The notes beneath the pieces were generated by a model. That model was not told the DNA's origin, did not search any database, and was given only the letters and a program-made list of their open reading frames with translations. Shown here piece by piece: positions 1,670 to 55,471 of a DNA stretch of 63,019 nucleotides; the first letter of the stretch is position 1; every line of letters starts with the position of its first letter. Origin of the DNA: Dimorphilus gyrociliatus (taxonomy: Eukaryota > Animalia > Annelida); the NCBI GenBank assembly GCA_904063045.1, contig CAJFCJ010000063.1, positions 1 through 63,019 of the forward strand, given 5' to 3'. Position numbers and translations under genes: made by a program.

Positions 1670-4600
1670 TGTACAACTTTGGTTATATTTTACATGCTTG
1701 AACTCTATTATTTTATGCAACATATACATGTACATCTTAAAACCTACGCAAGAAAATGCTATAACATTGCCAAACATAAGTCTGATTAGTCAGCTTGAAG
1801 GTTCATCTTTAATTACCAATAAAGGTTTGGCCAAGTTATAATTTAATTAACTGCCTAGGGTGTGGCCAAGTTATATTCAATTAACCTTCCTAAATGTTGA
1901 ACCTTGTAACATCCTGTACTAAAGATAAATATGAACTACACATTTCGGCAACTGTAAAGTGATGATTGGATGTCAGAGACAAACCTCAAAGTATATAAAT
2001 CCTCATTATTCTCATTTGGCATGCAGCTTCCATCTGGACCCAAGGACCTGGAAAATCATCTGGAAACAACCTCCACTGGAACCATCCATCTACTCCTCAA
2101 CATTGGAAGACAGTTTGGTAATTTGGCAACCTGCTATTACAAACTATCTACTCTGCTATTGAACTCTCATATTGTTACTTGCTTAAGTATTATTATTGCG
2201 AATAAACCATTTTAATTTAAACATTTGTTTAAAGGTTCGAGTAGAACCAGTATTGTTATAACTTGCAAACGCATAGATTTTGCCAGCAAGAGCAGTACAA
2301 ATTTGGCGCAGTCGACAGGATATTCTTTTGGTTTATTCAAAAGTTTTGAGAAAGTAAATATGGCAGAAGAAGGAAATGGAAACGCCACTGGGGCAGTTAC
2401 AGACTCTAACCCTTCAACCCCAGCAACTCCAACAATTACAATTCAGCCAGCAGGAATGTCAGAAAGGCAACAAAGACTAATTGAAGACTATGATAGATTG
2501 GTGAGTGAAATGAAAAGAAATCGAATCACAATTCCAACAGATCATGGAGATGGAACACATCACCCAGCACAGAACCCAAATGTTGATATCACAACAGTAA
2601 TTCAAGCATTAAGGGCTGCTTGGGACCGCCCTCAAAGAACTATTCTCAAGTTGTATGATGGAAGCAAGGAGTGTTCAAAATTCAAAGAAGACTTTAATCA
2701 GGCATGTTATGCTTATGGTTGGATAGGAGAAGATGTTGTGAAAGCAAATCTTTTAGATTATTTAACTGGTCCTGCAAAGGATTTGGTGTTGGCTCTGGAT
2801 GGAGAGCCTACTGTGGAGGAAATATGGAAAGCCCTCCATGACGAATTTGATCTAGATCCTTTGGAGTATCAGGAGAAATTGCTTAACTTAAAGCAAATGA
2901 ATGGCGAAAGTGTGGTTCAGTTTGTTAATAGAGCAAAGAAATTGATAAAGAGGTTTTCTCCACCTAGACCAATGGAACCACAATTGCTTGCAACTATGAA
3001 AGAAATAAAACTGATGGAAGTTTTACAAAGAGGATTACAACAGGATATTCTACATTTAGTGTACACCTTACATCCTAAATGTCAAACATTGGCAGAACTA
3101 TATGAGGCTGCTAAGCAAGCAGAAACTTCATTAAAACTAACTCAAAGAAAACCGATCACAATGGTGTCAAAATTGGAAACTCAACAAAGAAAAGAGACCA
3201 AAAAGACCCAGGTAATCAGAAAAGATGCTTCTACAGAAACCCCAAATTTCTGGAATAGAAAGCATGTACCTGACAACAAAAATGCTACTAAAGAAAAGTT
3301 TTCAAGCCAAAAAGTCCAAAAGTATGCACCAACTACAACAAATAGGTATTATAAGAAAAATCAACCAGCAAAGACAATACTGAAAGAGGAACCTAAGCTA
3401 CAAAAATTAGAAACATTAGACAATGAAAGCATGTCAGAAAACGACGAAGTTCAAGATATTCTCTGTTTTTCAGATAGTGACGAATCCACTTGTCAGCTGT
3501 TACAAAGCAAACAATCTGAGCGAAATGCTTCAACATTTATTGGACAATTTGAAACTAATACAGGTTTTAAGTTTGATGCCTTGATAGACTCTGGTAGTGA
3601 CAGATCTTTCATTTCAAAAAAGGTATTAAGACAAGTTCAAGGAAAAGCATCCTTCCCAGAACAAACTGTGAAAAATGCTAGAGATGCTTCAGGAAATAGC
3701 ATCGAGATATGTGGAGAAATCATTCTCAGACTTTATTTTAATGAAAAGATTATTAAACAACGCTTTCTGATCAACAAAATCATTACACAACAATGTATTA
3801 TTGGGTGTGACTTTCTACAACAAAATGGAGCTACCCTTGACTTTGGCAAGAGACAGATTATACTCCAGCCAGGTACAGAAAAGAATTACCCTGTTGGAAC
3901 ACAACACTTATCTTTCAAAGGGTTTTACCCAGTTCCTCTTATTATGAAAAAGAATGAGAGTCAAATACATACCCTTCAGACAACAATTGAACAAGAAAAT
4001 CCCGAGATGAAGAACAAAGTTACCCAAATTCTGGCAAAATATAAAGAAACTATTGCAGAAGACAGATTTGATATTGGCAATCCAGAGGTACCACCCTTGG
4101 AAATAACTCTTGAACCAGGTTCAACACCATATAGACAAAGGCCATATAGAATGCCTCCTCAAAAACAAGAAGAATGTAAGCAACAGATAGCTGAATTGGT
4201 AAAAAGCAAAGTTATTCAACCAAGCAAGAGCAATTGGGCTTCACCAATTGTTTTCGTAAGAAAGAAGGAAGGTAGTCTACGAATGTGTGTAGATTATAGA
4301 AAACTAAACAAAATGACAGTTAAAAACAAGTATCCACTGCCAAATCAAGATGATCTTTTTGACCATTTGGGAGGAGGAAATAAATTCTTTTCTACAATGG
4401 ATTTGACAAGTGCATACCACCACATTAACATCAAGAAAGAAGATAGGTCTAAAACAGCATTTATTACACCTTTTGGCTTGTTTGAATTTATTAAGATGCC
4501 TTTTGGATTAACCAATGCCCCTCCTCATTTTAGTTATGTAATGAATTCATTTGTGCTAAAGGATGTAAAGCATTTGTGCCTAAACTACCTTGATGACATA

Positions 4601-7600
4601 ATAATATTTACCAAGTCGCTGGACCAACATTGGGAAGCATTGGAGACCATTCTTCAACAGATTCAAAAGTACAATTTTAAGATTAAACTAAGTAAATGTG
4701 TGTTTTTGAAAGAACAAGTTCAATTCTTGGGACACATTGTATCAGAAAAGGGGATTGAAACAGATAAGTCCAAGACAGATAAATTATATAATTTACAGCC
4801 ACCAGTGTTTGCAAATTCACTACTAAGCTTTGTTGCATTTTGTGGCTATTACAGAAAATTTATACAAGATTTTGCAAGAGTAGCTAAACCTCTGTATATG
4901 TTAATGAAACTACATGGGAAAAAGGATAAATTGCAATGGACTGAGGAAGCCAAGCAATCATTTTTCAAGTTGAGAGATGCAGTAGTTAACCCTCCTGTAT
5001 TACAACTACCTGATTTTGCTAAAGATTTTCACTTAACAACAGATGCATCGAATGTAGCTGTAGGAGGAGTTCTTGAACAAGTTTATGTAGATGAGAATGG
5101 GAAGAAAACAATGAAACCCATTGCCTACGCTTCAAAACAATTCAACAATAATCAAATGAAATATGCAGCCTATCAAAAGGAAGCATTTGGGGTTTACTGG
5201 GTTGTAAAGAAATTTTTACATTACCTTCAAGACAAGCCATTCTTTTTATATACTGACCATCAGAGTCTAGTACAAACATTTAAGCAAAACAAATTGAATG
5301 TCAGCACAGCAAAATGGGTCATGGCTTTAATGGATTTAAAATTTACAATTAACTATGTGACAGGACGAAAAAATAGAGCAGATGCATTAACAAGATTAGA
5401 AGAATATACACCCCCAAGGAAAGTAACATTTGAAGAGCTAATTCATGGAAAGATCAAAAAGGAGAATTCTCCCTCTATTTCAGTTAAAATGGAACAGTAT
5501 GAACATACACCAGAGTTAACTTTTGTAGCTACCAGTGATAACAGTGAAGAGAAAATTGATTTGTCTTCTGTTGACTTACAGTCAGAGCAAGAAAAAGATG
5601 TGAATTTAAAATCAATTAAAGAATATTTAACATTGGATGGTCAGCTACCTATTCCTTATTTTGGAACTTTTACACCTTTCATAATGGAGATGTTTGTTCA
5701 CAAGGAAATGATCTGGATTATCCTTGAAGAAAGAAACATTCTGGTTTTACCTGACCATTTGATGCTAACTCTGCTCCCTAAATTCCATAAAAATAAAATT
5801 CACAATCACCATGGACCCAGAATGACATTACAAATAATTACAAAGACCTTTTGGCACCCAAAATTAAAGATTATGATTGAGAATTCAATAAAGGATTGCA
5901 CTTTGTGTGAACAAATGAATGGTAGGAGTAGAGTATACCCTTTGGTAGAAACCTTTCACCCTGCATCACCAATGGAGTTGGTAGCCATGGATATAATGGG
6001 ACCCTTACCCATGGTTAAGTCATACAGATTCATACTTGTGATAGTGGATCATTTCAGTAGATACACAGTTTTATATGCACTCAAACAGCAAACCAGTAAA
6101 GAAATTGCAAACCTTCTTTTCAACAGATTTTTTCCCATTTTTGGAATTCCAAAACAAATGTTGACAGATCAAGGAAGAAACTTTGTTGGTAAAGCTTTTA
6201 AAGAGTTTATGAAGGTATTAGGTATTGAGAAAATCCAAACAACAGCTTATAGAAGCCAGAGCAATGGACTAGTTGAACGAAGAAATAGAGAAGTGAGGAA
6301 GGAAATCAATAAATTAGTGGTGGAAGAAAATCAGCATAACTGGGTTGCAAACCTACCCTTGATTCAAGCATTTTTGAATCAATCACCTGTAGGAAGTACA
6401 AGACTACCACCCCAGGAACTTCTTTTTGGCACCAGCACAAGAACACTGATTGATGTAACAATGCATACTACCTCTCCTGAAACAAATGTACTATTTGTAT
6501 TCAATCACCAGCAGCAATTAGTACAGTTAAGAGCTACAGCCTTCTGTAAATCCATCATGGCAAAAGAACAATATAGGGAAAGAAAGAATAGAAATCTCAA
6601 TCTTCCAAAATATTTTGAGGTTGATGATGAAGTATTCTTAAGAAATGATGCTGCAAGAATTGCAATAACAAAAATCCCTTCTTTAAAATGGTTAGGCCCA
6701 TACCGAATAACAAAAGTCAATCATCAAAAGTGGATATATGAAATACAAATGGATGATAATACATGCAAGTTGGTACATGGTAGCAGATTAAGACTAGCCA
6801 ATGAATCTAATAAGTTGGAAACAGGGAAAGAAGCAACAACAATCTTTCACCTTGTGGAGAAGGAAATAACACACCTCCAATATCTTTCTCAGGTAGAAGG
6901 AAGAAATGACTTCCAATTCCGTTTGAAGAATCAAAAAGGCCAAGAAGTCATTGCCTGTGTGACACAGGAGCATTGAGATCCTTTATTACTGAAAAAGAAA
7001 TCAAGTTAATGGATGTTACAATTATGGATAAAGAAACAATTGGCTTACCAATTATAACTTCAGCTGATGGGAAAGCTTTAAAGCAAAAAGGAAGCGTAAA
7101 GCTGAATATCCAATTTGCTGGAGAAAGTATGGAACAAGAATTTATAGTTATGGAAAATCTAGACATAGCAATAATACTTGGTTGTGATTTCCTACAAACT
7201 GTGGGAGCAAACCTCAATTTTGAAGCTAAACAGTGTTCTCTCAAATTTGATAGAAGGAAAGGGAACCTGGCTGAAAGAATAAGGCAACCTCAACTAAACA
7301 AAGTCACTATAGCCATGATGGGACAGCATGACTCTTCATCAGAAAGTTCAGATAGTGATGACTCAGAGATGGAAGTTACTAATTCTGATACTGGTTATGA
7401 CACAAGCAATACTTTCAAAACAGACAGTAATTACAGTCTCAATGAACCTTCAAGCTCATCTGAAAGTGATGACACAGAAACAAATAATGAACTGGATCAA
7501 AATACAGATTCAGAGGCAAACATTATCTCTGATAGAGAAGATGAAATATCTAGTTCAGACGATGAGTCAATAATTATTGAAAGCGAAATTATTGATATAA

Positions 7601-10600
7601 CCCATTCGGATAATGAGTCAATAATTATTGAAGGTGAAATTATTGACATAACCCATTCAGATAATGAGTCCCTCATAGTGGTAGATTCATCCCAAGATGA
7701 GAAAGAAAATACAAGTGACACAGACAATGAGTCAGTCATATTTTTAGATGAGACTAAAATCATCTCTGAACAATTAGATTCCCAACAAGAAGTGGAACCA
7801 CAATATATAGAGTTAGAAGATGGAATAACTATCAGAGTGGAACAACAACACAAAATTTTCAACCATTCAACTATAGCCAACACAGGAAGAGCTAACATGA
7901 AACAGATGTTGTGGCTTCCACTAGTGATGACTGTAATGGTGATCTGTGGCTGCATCCACTCAATAACAGTCCCAAAACCATCCTACCAAGGTGCCCATGT
8001 TACAAGTGCAAACATTACCTTAACATTTAAACCACCGTTATACTTTTGTTCTAACCAACTACCAAGCCAGGCATTTGATCTAGCAGATGAGCCAACTTGT
8101 AATATAGAATCACAAGAAACCAAGACAATTACAGCTGATATCTATGAATTGAACTTGGAAGAAATTGAAACAAGAGCAGTAAAATGTCAAGTGTATCTAA
8201 GAACTAATTTTTACACTTACTATTTCTTTGGAGCAAAGAAGAGGAGGATTGTTAACTCAGTTATCAAAGTAACTCATGATCAATGCAGACAGATGATAAA
8301 AGACAAACGATCTTTTCAAGGAAAACCTTTAATGGTGAAAAGAAACACTTGGATCCACCAAGATCAGTTTCCTGCTGCCTACACATGGCCAACAACGACC
8401 AAGGTGCTGGAATACACCACAATTATCCAGTTTGGCAAAGCATATTGGCAACCTCCTAATATGAAAATTACAACTAATCTGGACTACCTGGAAGATTGTT
8501 TACCAGGGCAGTCCTATTGTGAAACAGAAGAGGCAATTATTGTCTTTAGGAACCTCAAGAATAATTACACACTTGGGCAACAATCACCATGGATAAAAAT
8601 TAGCAACAGAATTAGTTGTATCAAATTTGCTGGTCACTATTCTTGTCCAGGGTATTCTATTCTGGACATCCCTTATCAAGATAAGTTTATTGATGGAATT
8701 GGTGGTCCTGGAACAAAAGTACTAGTACCACTGGAGGAACAGAGTTTAATACAGGAAACAAGCAAGGAACACCTATACAATTTGCTACAATATCAGAAGA
8801 TTGGCAAAAATGAAGAAAAACGACTATTAAACTATCCCAATAAAGTTAAAGAACAAATTATACTATACAAGCGAAACAACCCCTTACCAAGTCTTAACCA
8901 ATGGTACAGAGAAACAAACACAAAGTATAAACTAATGAGAAATAAAGGCACACTCAAGGAAGTTGTGATATATCATCTACAACAACCCATTAGTCCATCT
9001 TACTGGGAGCTGGATAACTATTATATCCAAGAAATGCTGCAAGCAGTCAATTGGACAAGGGCAACAAGACAATCTGTCACGATTTCAAAATATGTATACA
9101 GTGAGAAAAGAATCAAAAAGAAGGTATTACCAACATTGGGCATATGGTATAAAGGACCACCAGCCAGAGAATTCAAGATTACCTATGAAGGAATTTATTT
9201 TACTCTACACATGAGAATGGCTAAAAAGCAGATGAAGAAGGAAGCAAAACTGAAACATAAGATAAGTAAAAACCCATACCACAAATTCCCATTGGAAATG
9301 AGAGAAGCTGCCCAAACATCTACCTTACTACATGGTATTGATTCAAATTTTAAGAATTTAAAAAAGTTTACCCAACAGCTGTCAAGTCTTCTCTGCAATC
9401 AATTTGTTCAAAGAAGCAGAATGATGGCATTACTAGCAAATTTGGATCCTCAATTGACCACAGTGTTAACAAATGAGTTGGGAATGCACAGTAGTCAGAT
9501 GGGAGAATTAGCTATAATTAAACAATGTTCACCAATAGCCTCAACAGAAGTAGTTTGTGACTTAAGCATGATAAAAAAGAATAACAAATGTTCTCAATTT
9601 TTACTTGTCACCATGAACAACCTGCTTTTCCAAGTAGAACCAGTTACTCATGTTTTACAGCAAGTCAATCCTGAAGAGATTACCTATAATGAGTGTAAGT
9701 CTAACAAGTTATTCTACAAAACAACTCACAACCCATTAAATCCTATAAGAAACCAACCAATGAAAGACAAAACGTATGTGTATTATTCAGAAAGAGGATG
9801 CAGATTTCACACTGTGTCTGCAAAATCCATGCAGTTACATATCCACAATCACCTTTCTGAACCAAAAATTGAAATTGCCAGATTAGCTGATCTACTCCAC
9901 CATGGGGTAAAGAAGGATATTGCATACCAGCACTCAAAAATTAAGCAAGTTATCAGTTCACTGGAACAGAAGCAGGCAAGGTATGATAACATGGTCACTG
10001 TTGCAGAGAAAAATGGCATTGTACCCAATTTATCTGGAATTAAAAAGTTTTTCCATAGTTGGTACTATAAACCTGGGAAAACACTTTATGTTATCATACG
10101 AAATATTTGTTTGAGTATTGTAGTGTCAATGGTATGTATCATCATTTTCAACTATATTATTGGAAGAAGAAAACAAAGAGAAGAAATTGCTACCCCAAGT
10201 GAGAGCACAGATAACTCTCCTGAAAACCCAAAACTAATGAAACAAAGTTGTAGCTTTAGTCAACATCAAACTAATGAAGAAGAACAACCACCTGTAATTC
10301 TCATTAAATCAAGATGAAGGGACTCATCTTCACAAAGAAGGGGGAAGTTGTACAACTTTGGTTATATTTTACATGCTTGAACTCTATTATTTTATGCAAC
10401 ATATACATGTACATCTTAAAACCTACGCAAGAAAATGCTATAACATTGGCCAAACATAAGTCTGATTAGTCAGCTTGAAGGTTCATCTTTAATTACCAAT
10501 AAAGGTTTGGCCAAGTTATAATTTAATTAACTTGCCTAGGGTGTGGCCAAGTTATAATTCAATTAACCTTCCTAAATGTTGAACCTTGTAACATCCTGTT

Positions 10601-13600
10601 ACTAAAGATAAATATGAACTACACATTTCGGCAACTGTAAAGTGATGATTGGATGTCAGAGACAAACCTCAAAGTATATAAATCCTCATTATTCTCATTT
10701 GGCATGCAGCTTCCATCTGGACCCAAGGACCTGGGAAAATCATCTGGAAACAACCTCCACTGGAACCTTCCATCTACTCCTCAACATTGGAAGACAGTTT
10801 GGTAATTTGGCAACCTGCTATTACAAACTATCTACTCTGCTATTGAACTCTCATATTGTTACTTGCTTAAGTATTATTATTGCGAATAAACCATTTTAAT
10901 TTAAACATTTGTTTAAAGGTTCGAGTAGAACCAGTATTGTTATAACTTGCAAACGCATAGATTTTGCCAGCAAGAGCAGTACAGTAGGAGTGAATAATTT
11001 GAAAATTTATGTAAAATATCCTTTAATACATTAGTTAATCCTTCTGAATCTTCATGATAAATATATCTGTAGCTGTTCACCCATTTCCAGAAATTGGTAA
11101 TATAATCTTCGTATTTTTTATGATATTCTAAAATCTGTGTTGATTTTTTAAGCTCTTCCAAAATATTAAACTCTATATGTTCAGCCAACAACTCTACAGT
11201 ATCTTCTTCTACTATTCCTGTCTCTATAAGTTTAGAAACCAACCCAGTATTAAGGATATTCTTGTTTACAACGTTCCGTTTCATATTTTGAAACAGGAGA
11301 GGGTATTCTGTTGCTATTATCAAATCATCAGAATCAAAAACATTTAATACATTCTCTTCATTTAAAAACAGAGGCAATCCCTGTGGATCATTTTCCATCT
11401 CAAAGTCAAACTTTTCAGGAATAAATTCAATAAATTTTAGGAACCGTTCTAAATTCCTAAATGGTGTCTTGTTGATATGACGAGGAACTTTGCCAATGCA
11501 ATGATATTTAGATAATAAAAATTTGACAGTTTCCATTGGATTTACATCATAAATATTCATATCACCTTTTTTAAATATTTGTTTTAACTGTGAAGGTACT
11601 TGTGTTACTTTCATACCAATATCTTTTAATATATCAACAATATCATTTGAATATAGGCTTTTAAAATATAAAAGATATTTATCATTATGTTCGTTGTAAG
11701 ACAACCATTCAATTGATGAATTTGAAGATTTAAAAGCAAATATTTTACTCTGTCTTAAATTATTCATTAGGCCTTTGCATAAACCATTTAATAAAGGATT
11801 TTTCTCTCTTAATAATGGGAAAAAGTTATAAAAATCATAGAAAGTCAACTCTCTCTTCACAACTAACATTTGTAGTTGTTCAATAATTCTAGCATAACAA
11901 TAGCCTATTAGTTCAGTGAAAATGTACAAATTCCATTTCTCTTCAATTGCAATATCTTCTGTGTTATCTGAATCAAAATTTTGTCGAATACCTCTTCGAT
12001 TTTCGTGATCTAAATAAAAACGTCCATTTATATGAATAGGCATATAACTTTCAATTGGTAAAGGTAGATGACAGAATATCTTTTTCTTTATTTCAATTCC
12101 TTTTTCCAATTTGATTGGAAGAGCAACACCAGCTTCAGGATTATACTTTTTATCATTAAAATCATTTGGTAAATTATCCTTTTCTCTAAATCCATATGAA
12201 CGATAAATTAACCATTTTTGATCTTCTTCTAAATCATTTATATTGAGATAATAACATAAAGAAATTGGGTTGTAATGATGCTTATTATACATTTCTTGAG
12301 TGAAACTAGTTTGCTGGTAATTCTCACTAAACATTTCCTTTGAAGTTGATATACAAGATAATATCTTGTATGAATTATGAGTTTTCTTTTTAAATTCAAT
12401 CTTTTGAATACTATTCAAGAAAAAGAAACATTCTTTTGCGGTTTTACAAAAGTGCTCTTTTAACATTTCTTCTGCTTTGTCAAAGAGCAATGGTTTATCA
12501 GATAGTTTTGACTTTGTAGCCATACTACTATCTCTTAGTGGAAACCTGAATAAGACTCCATTTTTTAGATCAAATCCTTTGGGTATTGTCTGTAAAACAT
12601 CTGAATATAATTTCATACTTTCTAAAGGTATCATTCGGCCTGGCTTAAAAAAATTTTCAGAGTTTGGAAAGTATGAACGATGAGGATCAAATACGCAAAA
12701 AACTAGACCTTTTTTCTCATGATTAGCAACAATTATAGGTACATCAGTTAAATGATATACACAATTAAAACCAACACCAAATTCTCCAACTTTAGTCACA
12801 TCTGCTTTTTTACTTCCTTCACCTAACTTTTGAATTCCTTTGAAATCTTCATTCTGAAATTTTCCATTGTTATAAACCAGTAATGCTGGACACTTTTGTA
12901 AAGGTTTCCAAGAATCTCCAAATATTTTCTCATCTCCATATTCATTATCATCAAGAATAAATTGAATTTCAGTAGCACCAGCATCATCAGCATTCTGAAT
13001 AATCTCCTTAATAATTGTTCCATCATTTGGATAGGCTCGAAGAAGAGTTTTAATACGACAGATTAAATCCTCTGATTGACCAAATTCTTCTCCAATTCCA
13101 ATAGATTTTGCTTGAATGTACTTATCCTGATTATTTTGAATTCCTAGCCTCATAGCTAGATCAATACTAATTTTCTCATGGCAAATATTTAGGTCACTTT
13201 TATCAATCCAATCAACATTGCAAAAACATAAATCTCTATGGCTCAACCAAACATTTTTTGTATTAGGAATGAACAGATGATTGTTATTATCCTTTAGATA
13301 GAGTTGTAACATTTCATGACAATCCATTAAGTGATAAAGGATTAAAACTGTCATATTAACTTCATTATCACAATTTGAGGTACTATTCTCATCAGTTTTC
13401 TCCTTGATTTTACTTAGAATTTGAATGAAATCATCAAATGTAGGTACTCTTTTTACATGGAGAATATCTAAGAAATCAGTAGTAAAGACGTCTTCCACAC
13501 ATCTAAACATAAATGGTTCAAGCCTAGTAGTAATATTGGCCTGGTAGCATATTGAATGATCTGTTTCAAATTTATAACTGTCCATACTGTGAACAAGAAG

Positions 13601-16600
13601 TGGGAAAGCTGTTGGATTAAAGTCTCTCCAACTCAAAAAAGTAATAATCTTTTTGTATACTAGCTTTACTTGTTCAGAAAAATTATATTTTGAAGAATCT
13701 TGACATTATCCAACACTTCTTCAGTAGTTGGCTCTTTAATATTGAAAACTTTCCATATGATTGATAATGATTTCCTTAAGTTATTAACAGATGGTTTTAC
13801 AAAGGCTACCAATCGAAAATCACATTTTCTAGTTGCCTTAGGAGAATATAAATAAGTGACACCATCATCATGCCAGTCTAATATCCAATTTTCTGGTTTT
13901 ACTTTTATTGGTATGAATGAAATATTGCTTAGATTTTCAAGTTGTTCATCCAACATATTTGTCCCCGAGGCAGTCATTTCTTCAATAACTGAACATATCA
14001 AATGTCCTCTATCAATAAAGTTCTTATCTTTTCTATGCTTTTCAAGTACCTTGCACCTTTCAATAATCTGTTGTACAGTCAATTGAGAAGATATCATCCC
14101 AATGGAAGAAAGTTCATTTTTCAAACTCTCAATATCTTCTTTGTTCCATTCACAAAATCGATTCTCTTCAAAATCGAAGAGAGATGATAATTTAGAATTT
14201 TCAAAAACAACTTCTCCAGGTAATTTTAAAACGCCATTTGGTTTTGTTCTAATACACTTTGCTTGTTTCAATATATGATTTATCTTTGAATGGAAAAGTT
14301 TAAGTCCATTTCTAATGATTAAATCAAAATGTTGGCAATTAATCGAATCGCTCCTCGCAACAATATTTGAATAAAATGTTTCAGTATCAATTATTCTTTT
14401 CCTAAAAAAATCTTTCTCGCATTCTTCAATAGTATTTCGTAAATTTGAAGGTATTTTAGGAAATGGCAATTGAAAAAGATCAAATGCAATAGAATGTATA
14501 TCAATATTTTCAAATTGTTCCATTTTATAAAGTTCCTCGCTTAAGAATAGTATATTGTTTGACTCAAACCATTTCATCTGATACATAAACCAATGATTAG
14601 AAGATTTAATCATTTCTCTATAAAAATTTTTTATGAGCTTTTCAATGAATTGATCAGTAGAACTATTTAATGTTGGGAATAGACTGTACCAGTAACATTC
14701 ATCATTCCCAATGATTGTTCTCAGTGCAAAAAAGGTATCTATAAGAGCTGATGTAATTACTCTTTCAAAGAGTAAACTGTTCCATTCGTGTTCAAGTAAA
14801 TGTTTATCTCCTTTACTATCTCTAATAATGTTTCTTCGGTCATGAGATACTGCAAATGACCCATTCAAATGAAAAGGAAGATGCGAAGAAATTGGAAGTG
14901 GAAGGAAACAAAATAAAGAATTATTGCGCGAAATATTCTTTGTTAAACTCATTGCAACTCCTCCAATAGCTATATTTCCTCTTTTCTCCAATTCTTGTAA
15001 CATATTTGTAATTTTTACTTGTCCAATAAGCCAAAGATACGATTGATTGATCTCGGAGCCATCATTCAAATATTGAAAAGCTGAACCCACCTTCTTATCT
15101 ATTTTTATAATAACAACTGTCTGTGATTCATTGGGATCAAATAGGATACTTGTATGTTGTATTACTTTTATATATTCTTCCTGTTCCTTTAAACATTTTG
15201 GTATATTTTCAATTTGAAGAGATTTGGCATCAAGTGCATCGTGAAGTGTTTTTTTCACACTAATAATTTCCTTTTGGTCTCCTGAAGAATTTATATGAAA
15301 CATTTGAAATTCGCATATACATTGAGTAAATATGAGAAGATCACTGGATAATTCAAGTACAATGTTTATTAATTCTTTTATATCTTCGGAATTGTAGGAG
15401 TTTTTAGAAATTAAAGATTTAAAAGCTTGTTCGTCACTCCTCAATTGAAGCTTGTATAGCGTTCCATCAAACCTAGATTCAGATGGTACTTTACAATTAA
15501 ATATTCCTTCGAAAGGTGACAATAATCTCTTTAATGGTTTTAATTTGGATTCATTCAATTTTATTCGATAACCTCCTCTTTGTTGCTTTGAAAGGCTTCC
15601 AGAGTATTGAGCATGGGGATCAAATCTAACGTAGCTGTTACCCGATATAAATGATGGTGTTTCTGTGTAATGATATACAGAATTAAATCCAATACCAAAT
15701 TTTCCAATTGTTGACTTTTTTAACTCTTTATGACCAGAATTAATAGATTTTATTGCATCAAAATCACTTTCACTGAATAATCCATCATTGTAGACCCAAA
15801 TGGATGGACCAATGAAATATTTACTTTCGTCTTCAACCGATGAAGATCTTTCATCCAACAGAATTTTGACTGTTGTTGCTCTAGCATCATCAGCATTTTG
15901 TATAAGCTCTTTAATTGGACCAATTCCATCTTTGTATTCTGAAATCAATTGTTTCAATCTACGACATAAATTTTCAGATTGAGTCCAATCTTCAAATTCC
16001 AATAACGATTCATTAATGGTCCGAATATCCAGGATTTTTATTGTATCCTGGCTAAGTGTTAGTTGATTATGAATTATATAACTGAATCTATTCTCATCAA
16101 ATTCAATGATATAGCAATCGTCATCTTTTCCAGTAAATCGTGAAGCAGCTGCTTGGGTACACATGCTCAGTGGTTTCATAGAAAAGGTAGATGAATTTGT
16201 TCTTTCTACTGGAATCATTATATTCTTTAATTCATGAGAATTAGCATCTTGAATAGAGTTCAAAATATCTGAACATATGCTAATACCATTTTTACAGGTT
16301 GAAGGAGGGTTTACACTAATTTCCAACAGCACCTAATTTAAGGTTGTACAAAAAAAATTTTAGACACATATTAATATGTAAAAGATGTGGAAACTTACAT
16401 TTATACAATCCATGTCTTCTTTGGCTCCACATTTTGAATAGAACTCTTTAAATTCTATAAAGTTATTAGGAAGATAGAATCTATAAGGTTCTATTTGAAT
16501 ATTTCTATTATTAAGAATGATTTTTGAAGGATGAACAAACTCTTTTCCTGTCCAGGCACATTGTTGATTTTTGAATTCGGACACCCAATCTTCATACAAA

Positions 16601-24190: not shown

Positions 24191-24683
24191 TGGATTAGGA
24201 CTTGGGGTTAGGGATTAGCACAATCAGAAGAGCCTGGCAATCCCAAAATTTCACACACACTTGTAACCAAGATTTGGCTAAGGGTTTGTGTAGCTATTGA
24301 GGAGTTGCTATCTTGAGCAGAAGTTCCCCAGCCTAAGCTGTTACTGTATCTCCAACAAAAACACAATCACAAATTCTCAACAAGGGCAAAGAGAACCTGT
24401 GCTGCAATAAATAACAATGTCACCAATTAAAATCACTCACAATATTTTGGGACTAATTGTCCCTTTATCAAGTGAGACTGAAAGGCCACAGTCTAATCGC
24501 CACCAGAGTGATTAGGGTTAGGGTTAGGGTTTGCAAAAGGTTTTTTTTGACTAAATCAAAAAAGAGAAACAGGATTCTCACACTTCAAGAGTCCCAATTG
24601 AATTTGGGAAGCAGTCAAAGAAAAAATACACCAAAATCGACATTTAAAACAATTTCCCAGAGAAAAATTGTTTCAAAAAATTT

Positions 24684-24880
24684 TGTACTTTGTTGTATTG
24701 TAATAGCAGGAATGTCTGCTTCTTTTGAACAGTATTTGTCCTTTCCAATCATTTATCAACTTACCAAAGTACTCACACCACATAGAGCCTTTCAAGTTCG
24801 TCCACAAATAGTCTTAACAAATGTAATTTAGGTAGAAATAATTCAACGAAACACCAGTATTTCGGCCAAAGAATATATAT
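24684..24880 (-). repeat. Diverged element-B-family LTR fragment (R/U5 end)
   Basis: Starts TGTACTTTGTTGTATTGTAAT like 44982 and aligns to 44982-45180 (CCTTTCCAATCATTTA, AAGTTCGTCCACAAATAGTC, ACACCAGTATTTCG). Confidence 0.85.
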
Positions 24881-25150
24881 TCTATCAGTAGTCAGTCTGT
24901 ATTGGTGTATTGTCATTCCTAGTTGTTTTTTGGCATAACAAGGAAAGAGAAAGAGAAAGATTCAAATTAATCTGTAACTGAAAATATATTCTAAGACATG
25001 TTAATTTTTTGAAATATATTTAATCAATCAGATAAATTACATTCAAAATGAATACATTTCTTGTTAATTCTTGAGATATAAATTTTTCAGGAATCAATCT
25101 ACATTGTATTATCTAAATGAATTCTATAAAATACTACTATGAATTAAGGA

Positions 25151-29989: not shown

Positions 29990-30205
29990 TACCTTGGGAA
30001 AACCTTAAAGTATTTAAACACTCACTGTTCTGGCCCAAGTGGTGGCATCTCAATTTAATTATTGAAAAAAGATCACGTGGAAACAACCACAGATAAAGTA
30101 ACCCTTCTACACTCTTCTGTTGAATTCTAATTTGGTTATTAGGCAACCTTCTATTATGAATTATCTACTGTGGTTTGATACCATTTCTTGCTTAAGTATT
30201 TTATT
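29990..30205 (+). repeat. Diverged element-A-family LTR fragment
   Basis: AAACCTTAAAGTATTTAAA, TGGAAACAACC, TTTGGT.ATT.GGCAACCT.CTATTA, CTTGCTTAAGTATT are colinear with 1981-2192. Confidence 0.7.
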
Positions 30206-30436
30206 TAAAAAAAAGCCATATAGATTAAACACTTTGTTCAAAGTAAAGGTAGTACTTTCAAGAACATAAATTATTCAAAGAAAACTGGTATAAATTGAAT
30301 ATAGTTGTTATTTATTACTCTAAGATTGATATTTAGTATTAAAATAAATATCATTAAAAAGATTATTAAGAAGACTACAACATGGCCTGTACAATTTGTA
30401 ACAAAGAAGTTGTCATGTAATGCCATGATGATAGGA

Positions 30437-31915
30437 GGTGCAGTGACATTTCGGCCCAGGACATTTTGGGTAACAACTTTAAAAGTTGCATCAATGAACC
30501 AAATTTTACAACATTCCAGTAATTCTATTTGATGATTGTGCCAAATATAATACAACGATTTTTCTTTTCTTTTATCTCTCTCAATAAGAAATCAATTTCA
30601 TCCAGATTTATTTCAAAATCTAAATGTCTTGGATGCTTTGGTCTTTTACTCTCTTTATATCTAGAAGCTTTTCTTCTTAATGATTCTAGTTCTGGCAAGT
30701 CTTCAATACTATCTTTAAATTTAAGGATAATATCTTCTGCTATTCTTTTACCAGTTTTTCCATTGACACCAGTTGCCATTTCTTTTAAGTCCATTCTTGA
30801 TTGAAGAACACTTTCTATGTTTTTATGCAATTTATGAAGATGGTTTTCATTTTTTACAATGAACTTTGATCCCTTTTGTAATATGTATGCAGGACAAGGA
30901 GCTTTGGCATATCTCTGAGTACATCTCCAGGTGATTGAACTTTCAGTTTTTCTTTTTACATAATATGAACAGTTTTTGTGTAGAAGTAAGTCTTTATATT
31001 TTGTACTTCCACCTACAACTATTTTGAAATCATCTCTTTCTGTTTCCATGATGTTATACTGCTTATCCATCTCAAATGAAGTTTCATCACTTATATCAAC
31101 TCTCTTTGCCATGTCTTGTCCATCTTCAGGAAAGTTCAACTCTTTTTCATTGTTTGGTGATTCAGGTGAATTGAAGTTAAAGGAAAGTCTTAACTGTTAA
31201 AATTTATGGTGAAATAATAATATCTTTGAACAAATGAAATTACCTGATTTGTATTCGTTTCATTTGTATTATTCATTGATGATTCTAAATTAACAACAGT
31301 TTCATCATATTCTGGATGAATTTTACTCTGATGATAATTATCTATTTTCTTTAATTTAATAAATAATTTTTGTTTGATGACATCATGACAATCAGGACAA
31401 TAATCTGCATCTTAATATATAGGTGATATAGCATTATACCTGAGAAAGTTAGAGAGTTTACTTACATTTTGAACACTTTGCATGATAAAAATGTCTGCAC
31501 AACTTGCATCTGAATTTTCTTTGTGTCCAATGAAATCTTAATCCACACTTCCAACAGTTTTTCAAATTCATGTTGTAATTTCTATTGAAGCTTCTATGAT
31601 AAATGAAGAAAAGAAATATGCTTTCTACTTTTTCTCAAAACAGGAAAAGCAAATTGTAAAACAATGTAAAATATACTTCAGAAATAAGGAAAACTGGTAT
31701 CCATTATTCTGAAAATATTTTGAATTTTATAATAATTATTTTACATATCTGGAATTACTATATTATATTACTTATTATATTTTTTATTAATTTTAAAATT
31801 GATTTGCTTTTTCTTATTAATTGTATTTAATTCATAATTAACTCAAAAAGTTATAAAATGGGCCAAAATGTCCTGGGCCGAAATGTCCAAATGTGGGCCA
31901 AAATGTCACTGCACC
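30437..31915 (-). mobile_element. Internally deleted MULE (PHD-like exon, FLYWCH, start of the MULE DDE domain)
   Basis: TIRs GGTGCAGTGACATTT(C/T)GGCCCA with GGACATTT sub-repeats; ORF 30525..31139 has TWRCTQRYAKAPCPA..HLH; the frameshifted continuation IWFIDATFKVV stops at the left TIR; no clear TSD. Confidence 0.8.
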
Positions 31916-32289
31916 ATAAGTTGCATAAAAAATAGAGTTCAAGCATGTAAAATATAATGAAAGTTGTACACTAGTATTTGGAGGGTTACCTTCCAATTGC
32001 CATGGGGATGTCATGGAAAACATTTGCAAAATTTTGCTTTTACCCTAATCCTAATCTAGACCTAGGGTTTGTCTAACCATTTTCAATAGCCATAACTCTC
32101 AGATAGTATTCTCTTAACTAAATCAAAGCAATTGCTTAATTACTTTTCCTAACCTAATCCCAATGCAAAATCTCACCCCAAAAATACACCAAACTGGCGT
32201 TTTTAACAGCCCCTGTAAAACTATATCTAGATATTTACTAATTTATCAAATTCAAGTAAGAGGGACAAAATGGAATTACTCCTGAAAGA

Positions 32290-33002: not shown

Positions 33003-33859
33003 CATTTCAGTAAACAAGAAAAATACCTTTTTTTTGAAAAATGTAAACCCTTTGGTATGGTTTTATGGTTTTATGATCACTTTCTATATGATTTATATAT
33101 TGATTTGCAACTGTGAAAGCATTGAGTAAGTTATTACTATAAGTATTATTTTCATGTCTTTTTTCAACAGTTGACCAAGAAATCTCTAATTGGATACACC
33201 ACACTGTTTTGTATTCAAATTACACGATTAATTGAAGGCAGAAAACTTTCAACATTTCAAAAAATTTGTTTTCATTCGTATTATTTGGATATTTGCCAAA
33301 AAAGATTTTTTCAATTTTTACACATTTTTCTAATATGTTTCCAAAATTAGTTTTGTAAAATTTTTTATTCAAAAAGGTGATTCTAATCTGTTCCTATTCC
33401 CTTTTCTAAATAGATATTCCTAGTGGAATCCATTATATATTGTCTATTGACTTTACCCTAACCCTTAGTGTGGACCCACCTAATTACAAATCAATTGCTT
33501 AAATGTTTTTCCAAACCCATTCCCAACCCAAAATCTCTCCCCAAAATCTTGAAATAGTATTATAAATATTTGTTTCGAAGTTTTCTGCTGCTTTTCAAAT
33601 AATAAATTAAACATTTCAAATCTGCATTCTGATTCAAGATTGTGAAAGATCCATTCTATCAACTAATATCTATTCATAGCTATGTGAAAAAGAATGGTGC
33701 AATGAAACATGTTCCCCTGGCTTTCATTTTTATATCATCAAAGCAAAAAAAATATTATAAAAAGGCATTTAAGGTATACATTTTCATAGTTCATTAACAA
33801 TTTTTCTGATACTCAATTCACACTTCAGAGCATCAGAAACTTGACCCCAATATCACAGC

Positions 33860-34255
33860 TTGAAGAGTCAGCTAGAAGAAAAGAGAATATTTTCAGACTT
33901 GCTGGAATATTATGAAAATACTTGGATTTTGAATTCTACTTGGAAACCATTGAATTGGTCAATATTTGGATTATCAATAAGGACTAATAATTGTATGGAA
34001 GGATGGCACAATAGAATGAATAATAAAGTACAATCAAAAGGATCATTCTATTTGTTGATTGATGAATTGAAAAGAGAGGCTAATTTGGTTTGTATTTATC
34101 AAAAACTTCTCTCTGAGAAGAAGATTATCAAATATCAGAGAAAAAAATATGGTGATATAGAGAAGAAAATATTTGAAATCTGGGATGATTATAGGCTTGG
34201 AAGGATATTAGCTGATGAATTATTAATCCAGACTTCTTATATTTATACACCATAG
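33860..34255 (+). mobile_element. MULE transposase C-terminal fragment
   Basis: LEYYENTWI..WSIFG..RTNNCMEGWHNRMN..FYLLIDELKREA, homologous to 49406..49891. Confidence 0.8.
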
Positions 34256-37959: not shown

Positions 37960-38170
37960 TGTTAATTAGGTATTAGAGGGCAAGCCTCAAAAGTATTTAA
38001 ACCATAATTGTATCTCATCTTATCATCTGAGAAGATTGTCTGAAAACAACTTTAGCCTTCTACTCTTCAGAATTGGATGTTAAATTTTGGCATAATTTGA
38101 CAACCTTCTACTACAAACTATCTACTCTTCCTTTCAACTTTTATATTGCTGATTTCAATTAAATATTTGT
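37960..38170 (+). repeat. Diverged element-A-family LTR fragment
   Basis: CCTCAAAAGTATTTAAA, CTGAAAACAAC, TCTACTCTTCA..ATTGGA, ATAATTTGACAACC, TACAAACTATCTACTCT are colinear with 1985-2190. Confidence 0.75.
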
Positions 38171-44030: not shown

Positions 44031-44981
44031 TTATCCAAATCTATTCTGTATTGTGTTTGTATTTCCAAAGTTTTTTTTGGCGGTAATCCTTTTAAAAAGA
44101 TTAGTGTAAAATTTCTTGATTTTTAATCTAATAGATGATTTCGTATAACCATGAAGAAGGGCATTTATTGTTGAATTTGAAACAATAATTACTGTAAATA
44201 CTTCTGTAATAATTTGAAATTCGTATCTGGAGAAGATTTTTCTCTCTTCCACTGCATTGTACTTAGTAATTGTTAATGTAGCTGGTAAAGCCCATAATAA
44301 ACAATTGATTATTAATAAGCATGCTAAAATTCGGATGCTACTCCCTTCAGATTTTATATTATTAGCGTTCGATACATCAGAAATTGCTTTTCTCTGTTTT
44401 CTTATCGCTCTTAATATAGGAATATACAATAAGAAACTGGTAAAAGCATTAGGTAAAACAGTAGAGAATGACCAAAAAAACATGTACGTAAAAGGAAAAA
44501 CATTGTGAGTTTCACATTGAAAAGTTATATTATGCTGCAAAATATATTCATATCTATTCCAGCCAATTGCAGTTGGAAGTAGACAAATGGTAAAATTGAT
44601 TAACCATATGCAAGAAAGCAATATAAAAGCTTTCTTAATTGTCCAAATTTTGTAAAATGATAAAGGTTTTACAACAGCCAAAAACTTTTCAAATGTAATT
44701 AGAGTTAATGTAAATGATGATACTGCAACTATCATAAAAATAATTTCATATGCTAAAAGACATTTATAATAGCTTAGGTCTTTACTATGAAATAGAATAA
44801 AAATGAATATACTTATTGAATATAAAATATCTGTAAAGGTTAGTGCTGTAACACCAAAATTATGTAATTTCCATAAATCTTTATTAATAATATGAATAAT
44901 GATTAAATTAAAATTTAAAATTAAACCTGCAAATTGGTTGCAGCTTGATATAACTGTTAAATAAATGTTGTCGAACACCAT
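44031..44981 (-). CDS. Rhodopsin-family GPCR, probably N-terminally truncated, abutting the element B 3' LTR
   Basis: Seven hydrophobic segments; LTFTD (TM2), ITFEKFLAVVKPL (DRY position), IGWN, Cys in ECL2, NSTINALLHG (NPxxY position). Confidence 0.85.
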   Translation of the reverse strand: MVFDNIYLTVISSCNQFAGLILNFNLIIIHIINKDLWKLHNFGVTALTFTDILYSISIFIFILFHSKDLSYYKCLLAYEIIFMIVAVSSFTLTLITFEKFLAVVKPLSFYKIWTIKKAFILLSCIWLINFTICLLPTAIGWNRYEYILQHNITFQCETHNVFPFTYMFFWSFSTVLPNAFTSFLLYIPILRAIRKQRKAISDVSNANNIKSEGSSIRILACLLIINCLLWALPATLTITKYNAVEERKIFSRYEFQIITEVFTVIIVSNSTINALLHGYTKSSIRLKIKKFYTNLFKRITAKKNFGNTNTIQNRFG

Positions 44982-45916
44982 TGTACTTTGTTGTATTGTA
45001 ATTGTAGGAATTTCTGGTTCGTCACAACTGTAATCGTCCTTTCCAATCATTTACCAACTTGCCAAAGTACTGGTCCAAATAGAACCTTTAAAGTTCGTCC
45101 ACAAATAGTCTAACAAAGGCAATTTCGGTAGAAATTGATTAACAAAACACCAGTATTTCGTCCAAAGAATATGTATTGAGTAAAATGAGCTTCTAGTTCT
45201 AAACAAGCTAGTTTAAACAACTAGCTGACGGTTAGAAAACTGAACTATCAACTGTTAATTTCGTAGGGTTTATATACTCTTTTAAGGGTTGATAGTTCAC
45301 AAATTTCAATGTTCACAAAAACAAAAGTAACATTTGAAGACAAAGAAAAGTTCTAAATATGGTCATGTTTTTATTGTTTTCCTCTTCTAAATAATAGTTG
45401 AATTTCGAAGGTTGGAGAGTTGCATAAGATGTAACAATTTTAGTAGGACAAGTCCAACAATCAAGAAAACATGTAGATTGTATATTTGACCATTTTTATA
45501 TTCTACCTTAATAATGATATTCAATTGATTGAGTTAGTAAATTTAGCATCAGCATATAAGGAGGAAGTATATCTGATTAATGCATGTTAAAAAGAACAGT
45601 ATTGTGTATACAATACTGTTGAATAGTGAATATAATCTAACCTTAGAATTTAAGCATAATTGATAATTAATTGAACTAGTTTTAGTTCGAAATCATAAAT
45701 TTATGGATTAATAAATTGTAATATTAATGCTAGGTTGCAAATAGCAAATATTCTTTATATAATTCAATAGGTTTTATTACTGCATAATGTGTATGCACTG
45801 CCCTATGCGAAACTAGGTCACTACTGCTTATCTTTATCAGTGCTATCTGCATAGTACAATACTGGTTCAATACTACTTCTCTATTGTAGAATATAGCTGA
45901 CGAATGTATGTGTACA
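44982..45916 (-). repeat. Element B 3' LTR (935 bp)
   Basis: Matches 55472-56406 with two substitutions found by eye; TATATAAA on the minus strand near 45270-45277. Confidence 0.97.
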
Positions 45917-45920
45917 AACA

Positions 45921-45932
45921 TCCCACTCCTTT
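45921..45932 (-). promoter_or_regulatory. Element B polypurine tract
   Basis: AAAGGAGTGGGA on the minus strand, overlapping the env stop, 4 nt before the 3' LTR. Confidence 0.75.
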
Positions 45933-48360: not shown

Positions 48361-48383
48361 TCCACCATTTGTTTGGTGTTTCC

Positions 48384-50199
48384 GAATTATGGAGAAAACG
48401 TCCACTGGAGAAAACGTCCACTGATTGGAGAAAACGTCCACTGGTCGGAGAAAACGTCCACTGGAGAAAACGTCCACTATGTGAAGAATATATTAAAAAA
48501 TACTTTTTCAAATTTAAATTTTTATTATTGATTTTGAGATATATCCAATACATTCCCATAATGCAATCACTTTTGGTAGCCATTTTGAAATCCAGACAGG
48601 AAACAGTTCTGGGATCTTCTATGTTTTTCATGGAAAGTGAATATTGTGCATATTTCATCTACAATTTTTCAGAATTTTTTGCAGTTTGAAATATATTTCA
48701 CTATTGAAAACCATCAGACAAAACACAAACTTTAGAATTGATATCAGTAAGTTATAGAATATTGTGTTGAAATGATTTATTTATAAATTAGCTTTATTTT
48801 TATAGCAGCCATTTTGTTTATCATTATTGTTAATTGTTTAATTTTTAAATTTACACAGTTGGTTATTGATAGAGATTCCAAATTGAACATGGCACCAATT
48901 TGTTACATTTGTGAAGAGAGAATATATGGAAGACAAAATCAAGAGAAATGTCAGCTTTGCTGTCATTTATTTAAAATACATAAAAAATGTTTGGATTATA
49001 AAGGTTTGTTTAAGTTTTTTGTCACTATCCTTCCTTACAAATATGTTTTTATATTTTTTCACAGATCAATGGCTTTTGCTTTTATGGGATCTAAGAGAAA
49101 GACAGCCTACAAGAAATTATTTAAGGTACAATAATTTTGCATTTTAAATTGAATAATCTAATTTGTTAAATTAACAGGCAATACAAGATTTAACAAATGG
49201 GCATAGCCCCAAAAAAGTTGTTGTAGACTTTGAAAAAGCTATTTGGAAAGCACTATCATTCACTTATCCTGAAGCAAACATTAAAGGGTGTGTTTTTCAC
49301 TGGACACAGGCAATATACAGAAAGATTCAAGTAATACTTTAATTTAGTATTTGAGGTCTAGATTTGAACTGACATATTTATTTCCAGGAATTAGGATTAT
49401 GTAAGATGTACAAGGAGAAAAAAGCTGAATATAGAATCATGAAGAAATTAATGGCATTACCATTCCTGCCCTCTGATCTGATAGAACCAACATTTAAGAC
49501 TATTAAAGAAATAAGTCCTATTGAAATGAAGTCTCTATTGGAGTACATTGAGACACAATGGATAAATGGATTTTATAAACCAGAGGTATGGTCTGTTTAT
49601 GGTGAGGCTATAAGGACAAAAAATGATCTTGAAGGATGGCATCACAGGCTTAACAAGAATCTTTGCTCTAACACTGCATTCTATTTGCTTTTAGATGAAC
49701 TGAAAAGAGAAGCTGATCTGATAAAGCTATATAAAAAATTACTGAGTGAAAAGAAAATTTGTAGACAGCAAAGAAAAGCATATCAGAATATTCAGAGCAA
49801 AATATTCAGCTTATGGGAACAATTTGAAATTGCCTCAATTACCTCCCTGGACTTACTTGATAAACCTTCTGACATTTATTCACCAGTTTAAAATACCTTT
49901 ATTCTTTAATGTTGTTACACTGTTGTCAATCATTCTTGTTATAATGCTTGTTTTTACTTAATCAATATATTAATATTTAAATATTTGTAATTCTTATTAT
50001 TCATTTTTTCCTGTCAAATTGCTCTAAAAACTCCATCTATCAAATATCTTATATCTTACTTTGAAGTTTTATAGTGGACGTTTTCTCCAGTGGACGTTTT
50101 CTCCAAGCAGTGGACGTTTTCTCCAAACAGTGGACGTTTTCTCCAGTGGACGTTTTCTCCAGTGGACGTTTTCTCCAGTGGACGTTTTCTCCTGTACCC
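48384..50199 (+). mobile_element. Internally deleted MULE with tandem-repeat TIRs, inserted at the pol/env junction of element B
   Basis: Perfect 9-bp TSD GGTGTTTCC (48375-48383, 50200-50208); 5 left and 7 right copies of the 16-mer AGTGGACGTTTTCTCC in inverted orientation; PHD-like exon (CYICEE..CQLC..HKKC) and MULE C-terminus (VVDFEKA, GCVFHW, ALPFLP, DLEGWHHRLN). Confidence 0.93.
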
Positions 50200-55468: not shown

Positions 55469-55471
55469 ATT

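Follow-up and report, generated by a model that had tools for sequence, protein, structure and literature searches.

Fusion of an envelope gene (env) to gag and pol in a single reading frame has been described for Atlas virus and the related nematode belpaoviruses, which are reported to encode one Gag-Pol-Env polyprotein of 2,828 residues with no stops (PMC9094657). For the annelid Dimorphilus gyrociliatus, Dingle (Dinophilidae Gypsy-like) is described as the most abundant Ty3/Gypsy-like family, with an env resembling herpesvirus glycoprotein B (gB; PMC7854359), and the available part of a recent catalogue lists Annelida_Polychaeta_Dgyr_errantivirus_1 as a GAG-POL-ENV element with an env of HSV/gB type (HSV, herpes simplex virus) and seven copies more than 98% alike, singling it out for a chromodomain after the integrase recognized with HHpred and AlphaFold (Chary and Hayashi, eLife 2026, PMC13524379, Supplementary file 1). 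Here we analyze a 63,019-nucleotide stretch of the D. gyrociliatus genome (contig CAJFCJ010000063.1; the whole stretch is called the window), in which positions 1670-10983 form one complete, recently inserted Ty3/Gypsy element with long terminal repeats (LTRs), termed E1. Its LTR and primer-binding site (PBS) coordinates and its PBS sequence are identical to those listed for Dgyr_errantivirus_1, which identifies the two as one family, and E1 is likely a Dingle element as well. The element is thus already catalogued; its layout, with a second aspartic protease (PR2) and an acidic spacer between integrase and env, is real, unusual and apparently unremarked, and what is new here is that this PR2-spacer module can be traced to a likely recombination between sister families.

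In the accessible main text of the catalogue, the word "protease" occurs once, in a generic legend. The text and readable supplements of PMC7854359 make no mention of a second protease, although a domain drawing (Extended Data Fig. 3d) may show one. Within literature listings and the opening parts of abstracts, outside subscription papers, Repbase and GyDB, we found no description of a second or duplicated protease in an LTR element; one candidate, PMC11836539, proved irrelevant in the part available. Atlas virus resembles E1 in its single polyprotein but belongs to BEL/Pao and has a class II, phlebovirus-like env, and the accessible parts of its description speak of one protease at most, not of a second. 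The Tor elements of Oikopleura (PMC4402516) and the extra-ORF (open reading frame) LTR elements of bdelloid rotifers (PMC5408684) are, in the sections available, likewise invertebrate Ty3/Gypsy elements with cargo after the integrase that is common to several lineages. Unlike in E1, that cargo occupies separate ORFs, expressed by splicing or from an internal promoter, and consists of an env, a GDSL esterase or a DEDDy exonuclease rather than a retropepsin.

In the window, the coding region of E1 is divided between two ORFs that overlap at 6910-6976. ORF A, open from stop to stop at 2216-6976 with an ATG at 2360, encodes gag, a first protease (PR1), reverse transcriptase (RT), RNase H (RH) and integrase (IN), and ends ..GRNDFQFRLKNQKGQEVIACVTQEH*. 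ORF B (6910-10317) lies in the -1 frame with respect to A; its translation from 6955 onward is LCDTGALRSFITE..AIILGCDFL, and it encodes the second retropepsin, the acidic spacer and env. The initial annotation had located the switch at 6953-6957, and it is exactly there that A's final homologous codon overlaps B's first one. It had also proposed that one whole PR2 domain is split by the break and that, with one added base, the element reads as a single frame of ∼2,650 codons, and both proposals held: the last ∼50 codons of frame A are the N-terminal part of PR2, with 45% identity across 40 residues to the segment that directly precedes the catalytic motif in the protease of a sister element, E2, and the frame from ATG 2360 to the last sense base at 10314 (7,955 nt) is unbroken in short-read contigs. 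These contigs came from six sequencing runs, X1 to X4 from study P1 and X5 from study P2, with X6 giving no contig over the break; X1 and X2 may be source data of the window's own assembly. All five runs with spanning contigs (5,579 nt in X1, 4,387 in X2, 2,754 in X3, 3,230 in X4 and 3,128 in X5) are unbroken, and the X1 contig is uniform from RT to env, so that the break, which the annotation had wished to see compared with other copies, is not a family trait. The window's broken form was absent from the listed contigs, which collapse copies and lose rare variants, and no joint running from IN straight to env was present among the joints listed, 20 and 3 others lying beyond them. In the family, about 2,650 codons thus form a single frame, and the break is peculiar to the window's copy, being either an assembly slip or a private lesion of that copy, which collapsed contigs could hide. 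The two LTRs of E1 are 99.06% alike over 635 columns, with one substitution and, in the 5' LTR against the 3' LTR, five single-base gaps in short runs, and gaps of this kind are typical of long-read consensus slips. The features of E1 and the position of E2 are as follows.

1670-2299, plus strand: 5' LTR with TG..CA ends and a 4-bp target duplication, GTAG, directly 5' of it
2304-2315, plus strand: PBS, TGGCGCAGTCGA, identical to the PBS of E2
2360-3565, plus strand: gag, weakly PNMA-like (Pfam PNMA, E 0.0013), 29% amino acid identity to E2 gag
3566-3880, plus strand: PR1, a retropepsin at the canonical position (LIDSGS..IIGCDFL; Pfam RVP_2, E 0.002)
4256-5332, plus strand: RT and RNase H (RVT_1, E 3.4e-33; RT_RNaseH, E 9.7e-29)
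5750-6793, plus strand: integrase with H2C2 finger, core and GPY/F tail (Pfam; Integrase_p58_C weak, E 0.056)
6800-6955, plus strand: N-terminal part of PR2, frame A, starting near an Ile-Phe-His-Leu motif at 6842
6953-6957, plus strand: frame break of the window's copy, not present in short-read contigs
6955-7266, plus strand: core of PR2 (CDTGA, flap SADG, ILGCDFL), frame B, supported by an RVP_2 match, a structural model and 68% amino acid identity to the E2 protease
7306-7854, plus strand: acidic Ser/Asp/Glu spacer, homologue of the spacer between protease and RT in E2
7855-7896, plus strand: short leader 3' of the module, beginning Ile-Phe-Asn and containing a candidate splice acceptor at 7868-7876
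7897-10317, plus strand: Env, comprising Met, signal-like segment, predicted gB-like ectodomain, transmembrane helix and tail
10334-10347, plus strand: polypurine tract (PPT), from sequence inspection
10349-10983, plus strand: 3' LTR, with GTAG directly 3' of it
44981-55770, minus strand: sister element E2, gag-PR (PR2 type)-acidic spacer-RT-RH-IN-env, of the probable donor-type family of the module

As the initial annotation had claimed, a second aspartic protease lies between integrase and env; it is complete and apparently non-degenerate. It retains CDTGA, the flap and ILGCDFL, that is, all catalytic motifs, and matches 14 of 15 columns conserved in 45 outside proteases, the fifteenth lying beyond the slice examined. 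Pfam RVP_2, the profile suggested in the annotation, matches both proteases, PR2 with 27.3 bits (E 3.6e-6; E 2.3e-7 for its core in frame B), above the cut-off of 20.3, and PR1 with 18.3 bits, below it; with a profile built from the 45 outside proteases, PR1 scores 73.0 bits, the E2 protease 63.9 and PR2 61.0. Further profile matches of PR2 are to ASPRV1, Ddi1 and Ty3, and its structural model (predicted local distance difference test score, pLDDT, 76.7) matches Ddi1 and the protease of equine infectious anemia virus. With D-[ST]-G, the flap, hydrophobic-G-x-D-F-L and the predicted fold, it has the features of a retropepsin of clan AA, apparently intact, which would have to dimerize to be active. 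PR1 is 37% identical to the E2 protease and 30% identical to PR2.

The only protease of E2 and the acidic spacer that follows it, both placed before RT, are homologues of PR2 and the E1 spacer, and the block common to the two elements extends in E1 from ∼6800-6842 to 7854. E2 itself is broken twice: the N-terminal part of its protease contains a stop, and an insertion of 1,825 bp sits where IN meets env. PR2 and the E2 protease share 68% of amino acids, with a proportion of synonymous differences (pS) of 0.43 [0.30-0.56], dS 0.64 and dN 0.23. The spacers share 54% (dS 0.88, dN 0.33; blastn matches at 7334-7413, 83.8%, and 7789-7853, 86.2%), and the N-terminal piece of PR2 54% over 26 codons, at a pS of 0.85 with a wide interval. 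By contrast, gag, RT, RH, IN and env give pS values of 0.62-0.81, near saturation. Given that PR2 has 68% identity and unsaturated synonymous sites where the other genes are near saturation, the PR2-spacer block was likely acquired by recombination from a sister family. Gapped DNA alignment was of no use in placing its borders more finely, since it returned 72% identity even against an unrelated stretch. The spacer core in E1 contains 30% Asp plus Glu, 20% Ser and 3% Lys plus Arg; that of E2 is itself unusual, with ∼250 residues and 21-residue repeats.

A protease phylogeny, also proposed in the initial annotation, was computed from 44 sequences, including 40 of the 45 outside proteases. It grouped PR2 with the E2 protease and the protein P0006 (support 99/99) and left PR1 outside at 94/85. 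The distance between PR1 and the E2 protease, 2.6, is 2.5 times the corresponding RT distance (1.05, quick tree) and falls within the protease/RT ratios of 0.8-4.6 seen in eight outside pairs that are neighbors in both trees, whereas the distance of 0.16 between PR2 and the E2 protease is only 0.15 times the RT distance, far below the outside pairs. From these ratios, we infer that PR1 descends with the RT of E1 and that PR2 and spacer were probably imported from an E2-like family, a transfer in the opposite direction being less likely.

Relatives were surveyed among the best-listed 120 of 270 related polyproteins, none closer than 41%. None of the 120 has a protease match after the integrase match, in keeping with the annotation's view that a two-protease layout is unusual for Metaviridae. 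The nearest env and protease relatives are P0001 (62%), P0002 (44%), P0003 (34%) and P0006 (60%), and gene models of D. gyrociliatus itself are the proteins that come closest to PR2 and the spacer. Word searches found no protein of PR2-spacer-Env length among 4,882 candidates, and one longer protein containing PR2 among 211, which is a chimeric gene model. The annotation's statement that env fusion is known mainly from BEL/Pao needs correction: E1, likely E2, and P0055, a polyprotein of the Gypsy kind that comprises 2,339 residues and has one protease and an env-like tail recognized by sequence features (no Pfam env match), are also single-frame Ty3/Gypsy elements. Other arrangements seen in the survey were acidic stretches after the integrase in some other Gypsy polyproteins, an env that follows gag and precedes the protease, all in a single frame, in P0041 (Pfam PF24664) and P0050, and an integrase before RT in P0090, P0101, P0102, P0108 and P0120.

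Over 77 aligned columns, 7 changes are unique to PR2, 10 to the E2 protease and 9 to P0006, with all three different in 10; by this comparison, PR2 is not accelerated. Because dN totals 0.23, under half the value of dS, PR2 cannot, on these sequence distances, have drifted along its entire branch. A contig from X5 represents a copy ∼9% (RT) to 13% (spacer) diverged that links an E1-type RT to the spacer and continues toward the start of env; since the spacer is already in place in this copy, the spacer at least is, by its sequence, not a last-minute gain in the E1 family. Other contig pieces over PR2, listed at 80% likeness, continue like E2 (records shown: 6 of 6 in X2, 8 of 11 in X1 and 8 of 58 in X3), and none of the pieces so listed is a closer donor than E2.

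High-depth X5 contigs skip 59-66 nt at three places, 6989-7048, 9671-9729 and 10602-10667, each with minus-strand GT..AG ends and a pyrimidine tract. The first, 60 nt inside PR2, has the minus-strand ends GTAAG..TTTTCAG. We considered it as an in-frame deletion of PR2 and set it aside in view of these perfect intron ends; were X5 DNA, it would count against a functional PR2. The three skips likely reflect spliced antisense RNA across the element, from host read-through or as a silencing precursor.

The Env of E1 starts with Met 7897, which has an A at -3, and a signal-like hydrophobic segment at ∼7897-7962; its ectodomain has four N-glycosylation sequons and is followed by a transmembrane helix at ∼10081-10170. 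A motif scan found no furin site (R-x-K/R-R) in Env. The structural model is modest (pLDDT 56.1; predicted template modeling score, pTM, 0.32), and its best Foldseek matches, at low TM-scores, are to herpesvirus gB (E 1.5e-9) and to the gB/rhabdo-/chu-like G group (E 5e-13), which points to a class III, gB-like ectodomain at the quality of that model. The sequence CAACTATAG at 7868-7876 is a candidate splice acceptor; no sense-strand GT..AG joint into 7876 was present among the listed contig joints, which cannot prove its absence. Three Ile-Phe-(His/Asn) motifs occur in the frame, two at module borders (6842 and 7855) and the third in the transmembrane helix. Ile-Phe-His-Leu at 6842 corresponds to Ile-Phe-Asn-Leu in E2, and Ile-Phe-Asn at 7855 lies 14 residues before the env Met and has no counterpart at the matching place of E2. 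It is our guess that the border motifs could serve as cleavage sites.

For any single-frame Gag-Pol-Env element, the question at stake is how cytosolic enzymes are separated from a membrane-threaded envelope. Polyproteins in which a viral protease is encoded upstream of an internal signal sequence are familiar from the alphavirus capsid autoprotease and from the release of the flavivirus capsid from its signal anchor. The enzymes there are RNA-virus serine proteases, that of alphaviruses being a cis-acting monomer where a retropepsin must dimerize, and the likeness is an analogy only. The initial annotation saw PR2 as a dedicated enzyme that releases env so that its internal signal peptide can act. 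This is not supported in that form, the module likely deriving from a sister family that appears to fuse env without a second protease. In flavivirus polyproteins, internal signal sequences act co-translationally without prior cleavage, and because such signals work uncleaved, a likelier task for PR2 would be to free integrase or Gag-Pol from a membrane-tethered leader than to unmask a signal.

The reading we favor, to which we give a probability of roughly one-half, is that E1 encodes Gag-PR1-RT-RH-IN-PR2-spacer-Env, in which an active, self-excising PR2-spacer cassette frees the integrase from the env leader. The internal signal segment would thread Env into the endoplasmic reticulum during translation, and host signal peptidase would free Env, with Gag-Pol-PR2-spacer remaining membrane-tethered. 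PR2 would dimerize where tethered chains cluster and cut its own N-terminal border at the Ile-Phe motif brought from the donor; a further cut in or after the spacer, at a border that the second Ile-Phe motif may mark, would release the integrase. PR1, only 30% identical to PR2, would go on cutting its original Gag and Pol sites, and a shorter RNA that starts at Met 7897 might be an additional source of Env. Being inserted in frame behind the integrase, PR2 plausibly must remove itself for the integrase to be free, and this is the likely reason why it has stayed active. The sequences themselves show the domain order, the unbroken frame in the contigs, the homology and younger age of the module and the intact motifs; the processing steps are our deduction. 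The unaccelerated rate of PR2, the spacer in the diverged X5 copy and the Ile-Phe motifs at both module borders also speak for it. That two working proteases actually divide the labor, PR1 maturing Gag-Pol while PR2 and spacer uncouple the cytosolic enzymes from a membrane-threaded, gB-like Env, is a possibility that we regard with some doubt; if true, it would be a processing strategy undescribed for retroviruses or LTR retrotransposons.

Several observations weigh against a self-excising cassette. PR1 alone might suffice, because the E2 family and P0055 fuse IN to env with one protease, and env fusion as such needs no second protease, because E2 (likely), P0055 and Atlas fuse env with one. 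In E2, pol and env are in the same phase across the 9-bp duplicated target flanking the 1,825-bp insertion, and ∼20 residues separate the integrase tail from the env Met, so that the E2 family likely fuses the integrase to the env signal segment. The E1 family is young, and a second lineage with IN-PR2-env order was not found among metagenome contigs or among viral contigs queried with P0023, nor among the 120 relatives, so that the layout may stem from a single local recombination. The rate test and the pairwise dN/dS also span the period in which the donor relied on this protease as its sole, essential one, and they cannot show selection after capture. In the diverged X5 copy that retains the spacer, PR2 has been lost in an internal deletion (joint 4309-7327; a similar joint occurs in X6). 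The cleavage motifs at the module borders are a hint only.

A serious, though in our judgment unlikely, alternative is that the module is a tolerated passenger: a recent template switch would have copied the protease-spacer block in frame, PR1 or nothing would cut there, and only the open frame would be selected. The module is clearly foreign and younger, the sister family does without it at the IN-env junction, none of the 120 relatives carries it, and with LTRs 99% alike and copies more than 98% alike, little time has been available for decay. Set against this are the lack of a closer donor among the listed contig pieces, the others over PR2 continuing like E2, the presence of the spacer in a 9-13% diverged copy and the unaccelerated rate of PR2. 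Were PR2 only a passenger, E1 would clearly exemplify how a successful family can capture a module in frame, and its interest would be modest. Improbable in our view is that PR2 is dedicated to env processing, cutting spacer-Env away when or where PR1 is inactive and so uncoupling Env output from particle maturation, which in its strongest form holds that PR2-spacer is old here and was taken by the sister. PR2 does adjoin env with its motifs intact, the second Ile-Phe motif stands 14 residues before the env Met without a match in E2, and the acidic stretches after the integrase of some other Gypsy polyproteins mean that the spacer could have belonged here from the outset. Yet the distance ratios agree with vertical descent for PR1, as orthologue of the E2 protease, and with import for PR2, E2 and P0055 fuse env without a second protease, and in both elements the signal segment is preceded by a Met with favorable context, which would allow env expression without PR2.

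We think it very improbable that the explanation lies in Env being made from its own shorter RNA, spliced near 7876 or started at an internal promoter, with PR2-spacer as a mere C-terminal extension of Pol, an arrangement that would be compatible with the self-excising cassette. The A at -3 of Met 7897, the G at -3 of the Met before the E2 signal segment and the precedent of the Oikopleura Tor elements, as far as their description (PMC4402516) is available, speak for it. A separate RNA, however, does not require the frame to stay open in the contigs all the way from ATG 2360 to the stop of env, and it would leave an intact PR2 unexplained. Finally, the two overlapping frames in the window might suggest a programmed -1 frameshift at 6953-6957, or an assembly chimera as the source of the whole layout. 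We give this next to no weight, as contigs from both studies show no break and carry IN, PR2, spacer and env on a single molecule; no in-phase X-XXY-YYZ heptamer was found by eye in the overlap, and nothing relevant was returned from Rfam. Programmed frameshifting was rejected, being effectively refuted by the unbroken contigs.

The two families form a natural pair in one genome: their env genes are related, only one of them has a second protease at the IN-env junction, and that enzyme can be traced to the other. They thus permit direct comparison both of how processing works and of how protease blocks are exchanged as modules between families.

In its other features, E1 is a Ty3/Gypsy element, with TG..CA LTRs, target duplication, PBS and PPT, the pol order PR-RT-RH-IN and a Gypsy-type RT; its best relatives are Gypsy-type polyproteins at 28-41% identity. 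A single protease upstream of RT is usual, though not defining, for Metaviridae; E1 has two retropepsins. As in errantiviruses in the broad sense of PMC13524379, pol is followed by a signal segment, a gB-like ectodomain (in a model of modest quality) and a transmembrane anchor. E1 differs from the insect errantiviruses (gypsy, ZAM), whose F-type env with a furin site is expressed by splicing from its own ORF, in this fold, in having no R-x-K/R-R and in reading env in the pol frame. It differs from the single-ORF BEL/Pao elements (Atlas, Cer13) in its YLDD RT with Gypsy relatives and in giving no knuckle match (a Pfam scan found no zinc knuckle in gag), the single frame being the only likeness. 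After the integrase, Pfam at E values up to 1 matches only the GPY/F tail; the tail described as a chromodomain in Dgyr_errantivirus_1 thus has no Pfam chromodomain and is partly the N-terminal piece of PR2. The published "outlier chromodomain" (6640-6976) could be an SH3-like GPY/F tail or that piece of PR2, and deserves a second look.

E1 lies antisense within a cluster of sacsin-like genes on the minus strand (279-1205, 10940-13705 and 13666-16332), of which the ORF at 10940-13705 (Pfam SACS, E 2.7e-66) extends to the 3' LTR of E1. E2, which has near-identical LTRs and a stretch of ∼650 nt from the env stop to the LTR, is inserted in an ORF resembling a G protein-coupled receptor (44031-45050). 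The 1,825-bp insertion at its IN/env junction (48375-50208) is a DNA transposon with a 9-bp target duplication and 91-nt inverted ends made of 16/20-nt repeats; it contains a transposase fragment (49373-49891) without a Pfam match, which we take to carry a Mutator-like motif, and similar fragments lie at 30525-31196 and 33845-34255. LTR remnants related to E1 (73-93%; 30131-30243, 31916-31973 and 38056-38148) and to E2 (81-85%; 24665-24881) show older rounds of insertion. A transposase fragment on the minus strand at 59458-60207, presumably Tc1/mariner-like by resemblance, is located between inverted arms at 59380-59436 and 60594-60650.

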